Assembly: GCA_016930435.1 (NCBI GenBank)
Contig: JAFGGQ010000096.1
Coordinates: forward strand, 2,662 to 66,661
Reading direction: 5' to 3'
Source of the DNA: a bacterium
GTDB taxonomy: Bacteria; UBP14; UBA6098; JAFGQG01
Length of the DNA: 64,000 nucleotides
The position numbers were made by a program, and so were the translations under genes. Shown here one piece after another: positions 30,982 through 32,025 of the stretch; the stretch's first letter is position 1; the number at the start of each line of letters is the position of its first letter. The notes under the pieces are model-generated. The model did not search any database, was not told the origin of the DNA, and worked only from the letters and a program-made list of their open reading frames with translations.

Positions 30982-31383
30982 CTAGTTAGAATCTACCGAA
31001 AATGTCTTTGAGAGAATTACTTTCCCTGAGGGATCCTCCACATCAACGCGCCATTTACCGACCCATTCCTCAGGAATCCTCTTAGAACTCCAGGTGCGCC
31101 AGGTTTTCGAACCTATATCCAAAGTCACCCTGGCCTTTTCTTTATCATTCAAATACCAGATGTGAGTGATTTCGGTAGGTGAATTGGAAGCGTTTACTTT
31201 GGTAAAACAATACACCTGCCCAATAGCTTTTGAAAAAACTGTGTCCGGTTCTTGAGGCACTCTATCAATTACCTTTCGACAAAATACCATTTCGGGAACC
31301 TCAACTGAGCTTACATCTTCCGCTGATAATCCCGATATTAGCATTATCAGCAATAATGTTGTTACAAACAGTTGTTTGAGCAT
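30982..31383 (-). CDS. possible independently translated small secreted protein (internal start within ART ORF)
   Basis: Internal ATG at 31381-31383 preceded by AGGAG (5-nt spacer) and followed by a textbook signal peptide; same frame as upstream ART domain with no intervening stop. Confidence 0.3.
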   Translation of the reverse strand: MLKQLFVTTLLLIMLISGLSAEDVSSVEVPEMVFCRKVIDRVPQEPDTVFSKAIGQVYCFTKVNASNSPTEITHIWYLNDKEKARVTLDIGSKTWRTWSSKRIPEEWVGKWRVDVEDPSGKVILSKTFSVDSN

Positions 31384-32025
31384 GCTTACTCCTGATATAT
31401 TCACATTTTTCGGATTCCAATAATCTTTTGGATTGGTTTCACTCGTAAATGTATGCGCAGAAACTGGAATTGCTTTTGATGGATTGAATAGCATAACTTC
31501 TGGCCAATCATCTTCTTGATAACCAAAAGCATCATATCCGTGCCTTTTGAGGCGTTCATGAATCCTTGTTTCATACATTTGGAAAAGCCAAGCTGGAGTA
31601 TATCCTCGGCGTGTCTTCCTGGTAAAACTTTTCCTGCCAAAATGCTTCTCTAATAAGTAGCTGAATAGGTTTTTCAGTTCTTTTTTGGTTAAATGCTTAT
31701 TGCTGGGAATGACTTTGTGGAAATCAGGTTTAACAATATCCCTTCCGAATTCCCTTTTTAAATAAGCAATTACATTAGGATCATAGTCTTCATTCCAGAG
31801 TATATTTGTCCCGTCGACTAACTTGCACTTCACTAACATATCTCCCCAACCAGCAGCAAAATTCAAGGTTTTACTTAAGTATAATCCATAACCTCGTATT
31901 CTTCCTCCTATGATATAGTCCTTATACAGTCTAAATCCCTCCTTCATTATAGAGTAAATTGTCCTTTTGCTTGTTCCGTGGTAATAAATATTATCCATCA
32001 TTTTTTCTGGTTCAATTCTTTCCAT
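30982..32025 (-). CDS. PARP-like (H-Y-E class) ADP-ribosyltransferase-fold protein, in-frame with a C-terminal signal-peptide/secreted module
   Basis: N-terminus IYYHGTSKRTIYSIMKEGFRLY...GYGLYLSKTLNFAAGWGD mirrors the PARP catalytic core (HGS...GKGIYFADMVSKSANY); basic linker; residue 215 onward = MLKQLFVTTLLLIMLISGLSA (signal-peptide-like) + about 125-aa W/R-rich domain; gene about 36% GC versus about 47% for the contig. Confidence 0.5.
   Translation of the reverse strand: MERIEPEKMMDNIYYHGTSKRTIYSIMKEGFRLYKDYIIGGRIRGYGLYLSKTLNFAAGWGDMLVKCKLVDGTNILWNEDYDPNVIAYLKREFGRDIVKPDFHKVIPSNKHLTKKELKNLFSYLLEKHFGRKSFTRKTRRGYTPAWLFQMYETRIHERLKRHGYDAFGYQEDDWPEVMLFNPSKAIPVSAHTFTSETNPKDYWNPKNVNISGVSMLKQLFVTTLLLIMLISGLSAEDVSSVEVPEMVFCRKVIDRVPQEPDTVFSKAIGQVYCFTKVNASNSPTEITHIWYLNDKEKARVTLDIGSKTWRTWSSKRIPEEWVGKWRVDVEDPSGKVILSKTFSVDSN

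Follow-up and report, generated by a model that had tools for sequence, protein, structure and literature searches.

Does the ORF at positions 30982–32025 (minus strand) of the window, i.e. the 64-kb stretch of DNA analyzed here, encode one protein or two, and what does its N-terminal part do? The 347-residue product, which carries the motifs IYYHGTSKRTIYSIMKEGFRLY and GYGLYLSKTLNFAAGWGD, is called as a single gene by both NCBI and Logan, and the Logan assembly of SRR13394437 yields an identical product; note that the two assemblies are not fully independent, since the same reads may underlie both. The protein is named only ‘DUF2914 domain-containing protein’, DUF2914 being its sole Pfam/NCBIfam family match above cut-off. 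An initial annotation, made by eye, had read an ADP-ribosyltransferase (ART) fold in the N-terminal part and had left two options for the whole: a genuine fusion, or two genes whose separating stop had been lost. As detailed below, the name hides an ART domain, and the ORF is best explained, with good though not full confidence, by a truncated, acquired ART gene accidentally fused to a DUF2914 gene. The features on which this reading is based are collected in Table 1.

Table 1. Features of the ART–DUF2914 locus and its surroundings (coordinates refer to the window)
Feature	Position	Strand	Basis and remarks
77-aa ORF, probably a piece of a TIM-barrel gene of the aldolase class (BtpA/SgcQ-like)	30622–30855	+	Weak profile matches
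Complete DUF2914 gene inside the ORF (residues 215–347 and stop)	30982–31383	-	Signal peptide 31321–31383; Pfam match 30994–31176
Junction	31384–31410	-	Last ART codons (…KNVNIS) run into AGGAG (31389–31393), 5 nt before the DUF2914 ATG
ART-fold half (residues 1–214)	31384–32025	-	Member of a stand-alone H-Y-[E/G] family; lacks the usual C-terminal tail of the family
E176 codon (DWPEVMLFNPS), putative catalytic Glu opening a β-strand	31498–31500	-	Strand topology and motif
Family-specific helical insertion (residues 83–161, ~80 aa)	31543–31779	-	Conservation and helices in the model
Y49 codon (GYGLYLS), candidate triad Tyr	31879–31881	-	Conservation and profile alignment
H16 codon (YYHGT), candidate NAD-binding His of the H-Y-E triad	31978–31980	-	Conservation and profile alignment
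AT-rich dispersed repeat occupying most of the tRNA–ART spacer	32133–32405		Copy at 14127–14312 (79–88% identity); inverted partial copy at 44207–44260 (93%)
tRNA-Leu(CAA)	32494–32579	-	ARAGORN; Rfam tRNA, 52.9 bits; 3′ end towards the ART gene

Residues 1–214 are an ADP-ribosyltransferase fold of the diphtheria toxin/PARP type, as had been recognized by eye. When a profile of the family was compared with PDB sequences, the best 60 matches listed comprised only PARP16, PARP3, PARP10, PARP12, PARP4, PARP1, PARP2, PARP14, PARP15 and Tpt1; in addition, 59 of 101 relatives match the Pfam PARP family, with a best E-value of 2.4e-7. The AlphaFold2 model (pLDDT 87.6), which is confident up to residue 196, and a Foldseek search of BFVD, which retrieved phage PARP-like and ART-PolyVal proteins with E-values down to 1e-8, agree with this assignment. 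The domain, which begins at residue ~10 without any additional N-terminal domain, displays the split β-sheet of the ART fold with the His in strand 1 and the Tyr of a GxGxY motif in strand 2, as in the H-Y-E clade. A single-sequence search of the PDB with the window protein returned noise only (DnaJ, designed TIM barrels), and a search of PHROGs gave only weak matches, with E-values of at least 0.003.

Two of the presumptive catalytic residues are almost invariant in the family: (i) H16, whose position is occupied by a His in 130 of 134 relatives, is aligned by the family profile with the catalytic His of PARP16, PARP3 and PARP10; (ii) Y49 (Tyr in 139 of 141 relatives) is likewise aligned with the GxGxY Tyr of PARPs and also, by an hhalign comparison of only 17% probability with diphtheria toxin, with Y54 of the toxin. 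The latter alignment, made with fragment A, covers the His, the Tyr and the first helix and stops short of the catalytic Glu. The third residue is more variable. In the model, the strand formed by residues 176–179 begins at E176, a position occupied by a Glu in 36 relatives, including every close one, and by a Gly in 89 of the 125 that have either residue; since about two thirds of the family carry Gly there, catalysis may not depend on E176. The helical insertion has its own near-invariant residues, namely L89, E92-F93-G94, P107-x-N109-K110-x-L112 and E116, and its start aligns weakly with the ‘IKKELG’ helix of diphtheria toxin; it may form the substrate-binding site. The window copy retains all 16 of the 16 near-invariant positions of the family, and its ART domain would probably bind NAD+ and transfer ADP-ribose to some target.

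The family to which this domain belongs has neither a Pfam nor an NCBIfam model and, to our knowledge, no member that has been studied. An exhaustive HMMER search was needed to reveal it: this search gave ~184 clusters or representatives at 50% identity, with a median length of 238 residues; a word-indexed search with residues 1–214 found the query itself and one relative only, and the same type of search with a 101-sequence profile found 8 sequences only. Members are normally small stand-alone proteins of ~230 residues, taken to be cytoplasmic. DUF2914 is carried by none of the 10 longest relatives and is missing from the families listed for the 101 aligned ones. A search for loci with a 7-sequence alignment gave three genome loci, nine metagenome loci and no viral locus, and relatives were absent from IMG/VR, INPHARED phages and PLSDB plasmids (searched by tblastn for phages and plasmids). 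The locus exposes a small, uncatalogued H-Y-[E/G] family of ART-fold proteins, with a distinctive conserved insertion and with one clade found in glycolate-oxidase-like operons (see below). Time and again, bacterial ARTs have proved to act as toxins, as regulators, or as enzymes of defence or counter-defence, which makes a new ART clade a reasonable target for biochemistry.

The C-terminal part tells a different story. The domain previously described as ‘W/R-rich’ exists and is DUF2914 (PF11141), which matches residues 284–344 with an E-value of 7.7e-20 and 70.8 bits vs a cut-off of 23.6, over profile positions 2–62 of 62. The internal start announced at residue 215 is also present: the ATG of M215 (31381–31383) is preceded at 5 nt by AGGAG and followed by the signal-peptide-like sequence MLKQLFVTTLLLIMLISGLSA|ED, the hydrophobic segment of which spans residues 219–233. 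The DUF2914 homologs found are stand-alone in 151 cases out of 151 (104–170 residues) and cover the query from M215, which aligns with M1 of 16 of them; the …LSA|Q/E signal peptide is kept, and one stand-alone homolog starts with the same Shine-Dalgarno-led arrangement. Over their full length, residues 215–347 are 39–52% identical to proteins of 130–150 residues from KSB1, Calditrichota, Krumholzibacteria and Desulfobacteraceae MAGs, with which they have the WRTWSSK and WRVDV motifs in common. Judging from these sequences, the DUF2914 part is a widespread, independent protein with a predicted signal peptide; a full-text search of the literature found DUF2914 mentioned but not itself studied. 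Unlike its stand-alone counterparts, the window DUF2914 gene has no in-frame stop upstream of its ATG and therefore doubles as the 3′ portion of an ORF that extends beyond it.

How the two parts meet is visible in the assembled sequence at the in-frame join, AAAAATGTGAATATATCAGGAGTAAGCATG. The last ART residues, DYWNPKNVNIS, fit the family pattern W..KxVxLS, so that the ART frame stays native to S212, and the ‘xPLxxxxLK…’ tail that should come next is missing; of the 14 closest relatives that were aligned, most have LSxPLxxxxLK. The two halves also differ in composition. The ART half has 36.1% GC and 33.2% GC3, about 3 SD below the large ORFs of the window (mean 47.7±3.8% GC and 53.5±6.3% GC3; 46.6% GC for the window as a whole), and the DUF2914 half has 41.6% GC and 45.1% GC3, i.e. 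a gap of 12 GC3 points. Because the homologs of both halves are stand-alone, the ART tail is missing, GC3 differs and the start signals of DUF2914 are kept, these data point to two genes joined via loss of the ART 3′ end, and the ORF is probably a chimera of two genes of different histories. The option of two genes having lost their separating stop is thus the one that the homologs favor, both families being stand-alone and M215 being aligned with M1. More specifically, the ART copy would have lost the last 25–40 codons, corresponding to the family tail and including the stop codon, and would now continue in frame, right where the Shine-Dalgarno sequence lies, into a complete, otherwise stand-alone DUF2914 gene. 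The foreign-looking composition of the ART half suggests that it was likely acquired horizontally; since GC is also rather low in the DUF2914 half, the DUF2914 gene may have arrived together with it.

Could selection instead have shaped the 347-residue product as one genuine protein, in which a membrane-spanning segment links a cytoplasmic ART to a DUF2914 domain in the periplasm and an extracytoplasmic signal thereby controls or localizes ADP-ribosylation? The unbroken ORF, called as one gene in both assemblies, the intact ART core and the possibility that segment 219–233 acts as a signal anchor speak for it; however, no second ART–DUF2914 join was found among the 184 ART representatives and the 151 DUF2914 homologs, the DUF2914 part keeps a Shine-Dalgarno sequence, an ATG and a cleavable-type signal peptide laid out as in stand-alone genes, and the ART part lacks its tail and differs in GC3 from its neighbor, all of which makes a selected fusion decidedly unlikely. 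The fusion has the look of an isolated accident, although a fusion known from one case could still be functional. We recommend against carrying the 347-residue architecture forward as a domain fusion or as a toxin–immunity pair. If the ORF is an accidental join of two genes, then DUF2914 would still be made alone from AGGAG/ATG (M215) and exported by its own signal peptide, and translation from M1 (or from M9/M10) would yield the ART domain followed by the signal sequence, which would either anchor the product in the membrane or be cut after LSA.

An error of sequencing or assembly must also be considered, in which case there would be two genes in reality and a single wrong nucleotide in the A-rich linker would mask the stop codon. 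Runs of A4 and A5 occur in this linker, a TGA and a TAA lie in the neighboring frame just 5′ of the ATG, and deletion of one A would give …NPKM*. Yet the same sequence is present in two assemblies, the present frame fits W..KxVxLS to S212, a match that an upstream frameshift would destroy, and the ART gene would be missing the family tail even with such an error; we regard this explanation as highly improbable.

As for its surroundings, the ORF had been reported as a low-GC gene next to a tRNA-Leu gene, with a repeat called Rep-A upstream and a decayed BtpA gene on the other side, in what was described as a classic island context. The low GC and the adjoining tRNA-Leu are confirmed, and Rep-A is a genuine element with copies elsewhere in the window. 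The 77-residue ORF matches DeoC/LacD with an E-value of 0.0045 and BtpA/SgcQ (TIGR00259) with an E-value of 0.15 (11.6 bits vs 153.4, profile positions 167–203 of 257); these matches are weak, and the BtpA designation is to be read in that light. Its GC3 is 29.5%, within the same low-GC patch as the ART half. As to the island, only low GC and tRNA adjacency were found: there is no integrase-like ORF between positions 29000 and 32500, and the 3′ end of the tRNA is not repeated, its 15- and 22-mers occurring once only in the window, even with 2–3 mismatches allowed. The island context is borne out in part, the integrase and the repeat that would define a tRNA-associated genomic island being absent from the regions searched. 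The neighboring proteins checked were all singleton clusters at 90% identity, the databases containing no close relative of this genome, and a scan of region 30700–32650 for promoters and terminators gave no signal exceeding that of shuffled controls.

Alternatively, the ART half might be a decaying, functionless remnant in a variable, junk-rich patch, DUF2914 being the only part that matters, a reading that overlaps in part with an accidental fusion. It would account for the missing ART 3′ end, for the gene fragment and dispersed repeats that adjoin the ORF, and for the lack of a recognizable Shine-Dalgarno sequence before M1. Nevertheless, ~40% of the genes of the window likewise have no Shine-Dalgarno match, the 214 ART codons contain no internal stop in spite of the AT-rich sequence, no near-invariant residue has been lost, and the domain is modeled confidently over most of its length. 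A functionless remnant is therefore unlikely.

The initial annotation also attached a toxin, toxin–antitoxin or defence label to the ART domain, with DUF2914 as a possible immunity partner. This label was drawn from fold analogy: the best structural matches indeed include toxins and toxin–antitoxin toxins (diphtheria toxin, ExoA, MbcT, ParT/RES) and the phage ART AcrIF11, and the foreign composition and adjoining tRNA would suit a toxin with its antitoxin or an anti-phage effector neutralized by DUF2914 or by another neighbor. Against this, neither the ORF nor its two neighbors match PADLOC-DB 2.0, even at E-values up to 10, no phage or plasmid relative exists in the collections searched, no partner gene is common to all the family loci examined, and no macrodomain or other ADP-ribose hydrolase is found among the annotated neighbors. 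DUF2914 itself is independent and widespread, has no ART neighbor in the two homolog contexts examined and, being predicted to be exported, lies in the wrong compartment to neutralize a cytoplasmic ART. Finally, five relatives, which form one clade, sit between glcD-like and glcE-like genes in FAD-oxidase, glycolate-oxidase-like operons, and in one such context stop and start codons overlap; their location inside these operons argues against the label. Altogether, we consider a toxin or defence role very unlikely. The embedding of these relatives between glcD-like and glcE-like genes, together with one relative fused to a NIF/FCP1 phosphatase, brings to mind a new functional class of cytoplasmic, non-toxin ARTs whose helical insertion would select an endogenous target, for instance a small molecule or an enzyme of metabolism, the chance fusion in the window giving rise to a membrane-tethered version with a periplasmic DUF2914 moiety; this proposal is speculative and, as it stands, improbable.

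Comparison with known systems sets the family apart. Tpt1/KptA enzymes, to which the initial annotation had suggested a comparison, are characterized by an R-H…R…R catalytic tetrad, an H-H-h motif and an N-terminal winged-helix domain (PMC8120803). The window protein differs from them by having Y15-H16 instead of R-H, Y49 instead of a His, and no N-terminal winged-helix domain; it scores 12.7 bits vs a cut-off of 231 (PF01885, NF002013), and membership is rejected. DarT/DarG, suggested likewise and defined by a DUF4433 DarT domain with an adjacent macrodomain antitoxin, is rejected too, neither the motifs nor scores above threshold being found. ART-PolyVal domains (PF18760) usually lie inside large polyvalent proteins of phages and conjugative elements. 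Together with small phage PARP-like proteins, they provide the best viral-model Foldseek matches (E-values of 1e-8 to 1e-4), but PF18760 is matched weakly by 3 of the 101 relatives (E-value of 0.0017 or weaker) and not by the window protein, and viral and plasmid relatives are lacking in the collections searched, so that membership is rejected; unlike ART-PolyVal, the window's family is stand-alone and chromosomal. The match to PARPs (PF00644) is confined to residues 12–59, and no more than about 55 residues at the start of the domain can be aligned; the full protein scores 15.6 bits and residues 1–214 score 16.6 bits, below the gathering cut-off of 26.7; the region from strand 4 to the Glu strand is unrelated to PARP, and the PARP regulatory and helical domains are absent. 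As for the toxins of the H-Y-E clade, diphtheria toxin, SAIP and exotoxin A are 17–21% identical to the window domain (hhalign probability only 17%, for diphtheria toxin). Unlike these toxins, the window ART part has no translocation domain, receptor-binding domain or secretion signal, and the 80-residue insertion with its E92-F93-G94, P107-x-N109-K110 and E116 signature is the family's own.

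The ORF under study encodes a protein whose N-terminus contains IYYHGTSKRTIYSIMKEGFRLY and, further on, GYGLYLSKTLNFAAGWGD, and what the initial annotation had read directly from the sequence (the ORF, its motifs, the tRNA gene on one side, the low GC and an internal Shine-Dalgarno sequence, start codon and signal peptide) was borne out in full. It falls into an ADP-ribosyltransferase (ART) half, residues 1-214, and a DUF2914 half, residues 215-347. Compared with the large ORFs of the window (mean GC 47.7±3.8%, mean GC3 53.5±6.3%; window GC 46.6%), the N-terminal half lies about 3 SD lower for both GC and GC3. 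The low-GC patch spans about 29.9 to 32.4 kb of the window.

Features of the ORF and of its surroundings in the window
Feature	Position	Strand	Properties
ORF under study	30982-32025	-	347 aa
N-terminal half of ORF	31384-32025	-	GC 36.1%; GC3 33.2%
Codon of E176	31498-31500	-	
AGGAG	31389-31393	-	5 nt ahead of ATG
ATG of residue 215	31381-31383	-	
C-terminal half of ORF	30982-31383	-	GC 41.6%; GC3 45.1%
tRNA-Leu(CAA)	32494-32579	-	same strand as ORF; 3' end faces ORF
Dispersed AT-rich intergenic repeat	32133-32405; 14127-14312; 44207-44260		about 190-270 nt; second position a copy, third an inverted partial copy
Second dispersed repeat	24073-24179; 29880-29986; 49313-49419; 49383-49489		107 nt; 65-88% identity
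Signal-peptide ORF	30025-30615		196 aa
77-aa ORF	30622-30855	+	GC3 29.5%; DeoC E 0.0045; BtpA/SgcQ E 0.15 over profile positions 167-203 of 257
Protein beyond tRNA-Leu	32643-33380	-	245 aa
Imperfect direct repeats	61306-61702		within ORF 60539-62170; spacings multiples of 18 nt

The ART fold, first called by eye, proved correct. The full protein alone gave sub-threshold matches to PARP (PF00644, E 0.011, 15.6 bits vs 26.7) and KptA (E 0.069), and a word-indexed search with the ART half found a single relative, a stand-alone protein whose true ORF includes RLYYHGTAKR. An exhaustive HMMER search over 1.84 billion cluster representatives yielded 184 relatives at E ≤ 1e-3, of which 127 reached E ≤ 1e-10, with a median length of 238 aa for the 151 sequences retrieved. 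Every near-invariant position of this family is retained in the window protein: H16-(G)-T18, G30, G45-x-G47-x-Y49, L89, E92-F93-G94, P107-x-N109-K110-x-L112, E116 and G168. Three lines of evidence concur on the fold: (i) a 101-sequence profile compared with PDB sequences had nothing but PARPs and Tpt1 among its 60 best matches; (ii) 59 of the 101 relatives individually match Pfam PARP (best E 2.4e-7); (iii) the AlphaFold2 model of residues 1-214 (pLDDT 87.6, pTM 0.81) agrees with an ART fold in Foldseek comparisons with the PDB and with viral models, among which phage PARP-like and ART-PolyVal proteins matched best. The ART half belongs to a rare family inside the known H-Y-E clade (diphtheria toxin/PARP type), for which there is neither a Pfam or NCBIfam model nor a studied member. 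By their own criteria, the PARP, Tpt1/KptA, DarT and ART-PolyVal families all exclude it. Note that a distant relative of 385 aa, P0115, carries a fused NIF/FCP1-like HAD phosphatase (residues 223-369; PF03031, E 7e-7), which may hint at a phosphorylated substrate or product for the family.

The second half begins at an internal ATG followed by MLKQLFVTTLLLIMLISGLSA and then ED, and its residues 284-344 match DUF2914 (PF11141, E 7.7e-20, 70.8 bits for a cut-off of 23.6). A search with residues 215-347 returned 151 homologues, all of those listed being 104-170 aa long and most covering 85-100% of the query, with the best matches in KSB1, Calditrichota and Krumholzibacteria. When 16 of them were aligned, their M1 fell on M215, and the signal peptide (ending in LSA before Q or E), WRTWSSK and WRVDV proved to be conserved. 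Two homologues were inspected on their contigs: each stands alone among unrelated genes, and one has its own GGAGG 8 nt ahead of the ATG. The 215-347 segment is thus an ordinary stand-alone gene in its make-up, equipped with a start codon and its Shine-Dalgarno sequence, with an export signal and with the domain itself.

In most of the 14 closest ART relatives aligned, …FNPSxxxPVSAH is followed by …W..KxVxLSxPLxxxxLK… and 15-40 more residues. The window protein fits this pattern through DYWNPKNVNIS (residue 212) and then continues as G-V-S-M215, the G-V-S codons being the Shine-Dalgarno sequence and the 5 nt ahead of the DUF2914 start. The ART frame is thus native up to the junction; its tail and stop codon are absent, and the join coincides exactly with the next gene's ribosome-binding site. 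The architecture itself is unique among the sequences sampled: DUF2914 is missing from all of the ten longest ART relatives and from the families listed for the 101 aligned ones, and no DUF2914 homologue listed is long enough to hold an ART domain. Together with the tail-less frame and the 12-point gap in GC3 between the halves, this suggests that a foreign ART gene, having lost its 3' end, came to be joined in frame to a separate DUF2914 gene, in keeping with the second of the two alternatives first proposed, two genes whose separating stop had been lost. A one-off accident is the best reading of the fusion, and both parts probably still work. That a sequencing frameshift created it is unlikely: the linker does have A-runs and the adjacent frame does contain stops, but a second assembly (Logan) yields the same 347-aa product and similarity to the ART family persists in the present frame right to the junction.

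The surroundings fit a genomic island in part, through the low GC and the adjoining tRNA gene, but the window contains neither an integrase nor a repeat of the tRNA 3' end. The very AT-rich spacer between tRNA-Leu(CAA) and the ORF (468 nt) is mostly a dispersed repeat, without a match in Rfam, in which a hairpin could form between the inverted sequences GCGAAACCTCCT…AGGAGG(C/T)TTCAC. The copy adjoining the ART gene has an additional piece of about 67 nt, recurring inverted in the partial copy (93% identity), and one copy of the 107-nt repeat (29880-29986) borders the low-GC patch. The idea of a 'decayed BtpA gene' is plausible, with weak support. The 77-aa ORF, which starts 6 nt past the signal-peptide ORF and is absent from the NCBI protein calls, looks like an internal fragment of an aldolase-class gene of BtpA/SgcQ or DeoC type. 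Directly beyond the tRNA, the 245-aa protein has no kinase domain and matches only the C-terminal TM and PASTA-repeat part of PknB-type kinases (positions 337-561 of 563); a neighbouring peptidase matches Por_Secre_tail, which together with the origins of the best DUF2914 matches may place the genome in the FCB group. All neighbouring proteins checked (locus tags JW877_…, NCBI MAG) are singletons at 90% identity. Elsewhere, the direct repeats at 61306-61702 probably encode a repetitive 6-residue unit.

A toxin, toxin-antitoxin or defence role, as first suggested, found no support beyond the analogy of fold: PADLOC gave no match, no relative of the ART half occurred in IMG/VR, INPHARED phages or PLSDB plasmids, and there is no steady partner. 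Nor is DUF2914 supported as an immunity protein; being exported, it would end up in a different compartment from the cytoplasmic enzyme that it had to neutralise. In about 15 related loci the ART gene is solitary and its neighbours vary (cytochrome c and diacylglycerol kinase; IS200-like and OmpA-like genes; MerR and P450 genes; an ECF sigma factor). The sole recurrent context, an unexpected one, is an ART-like gene flanked by FAD-linked oxidase genes, glcD-like on one side and glcE-like on the other, in five metagenomic loci (L003, L009, L014, L016 and L017). In L017 (1059-4468), the ART-like gene overlaps both of its flanking genes at the stop and start codons, and cupin and DUF763 genes come next; its GlcD is 90% identical to that of L009, whereas the ART-like proteins share only 60% identity.

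With respect to catalysis, alignment establishes the predicted His and Tyr of the triad: in the profile comparison, H16 and Y49 align to the catalytic residues of PARP16, PARP3 and PARP10. Position 176 is Glu in 36 representatives (DWPE[VIL]xxFNPS), including the window protein and all close relatives, and Gly in 89 ([DE]xxG[IV]VVF), usually with an acidic residue 2 or 3 positions earlier. Given this 89 to 36 split, most members would either do without the presumed catalytic acid or have it elsewhere. A helical insertion of about 80 aa (residues 83-161) separates strand 4 from the Glu strand; it bears most of the family-specific invariant residues and may be a substrate-binding module. The interest of the case is modest and lies in the family (insertion, Glu/Gly split, glcD-glcE context) rather than in this ORF. 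Alignment by hhalign to diphtheria toxin fragment A paired H16 with H21, Y49 with Y54 and the helix LKREFG with IKKELG, at a probability of only 17%, and ended short of the Glu. We infer E176 as the candidate third residue from the AlphaFold2 model, where it opens strand 176-179 after a loop, a placement like that of diphtheria toxin E148 and PARP1 E988.
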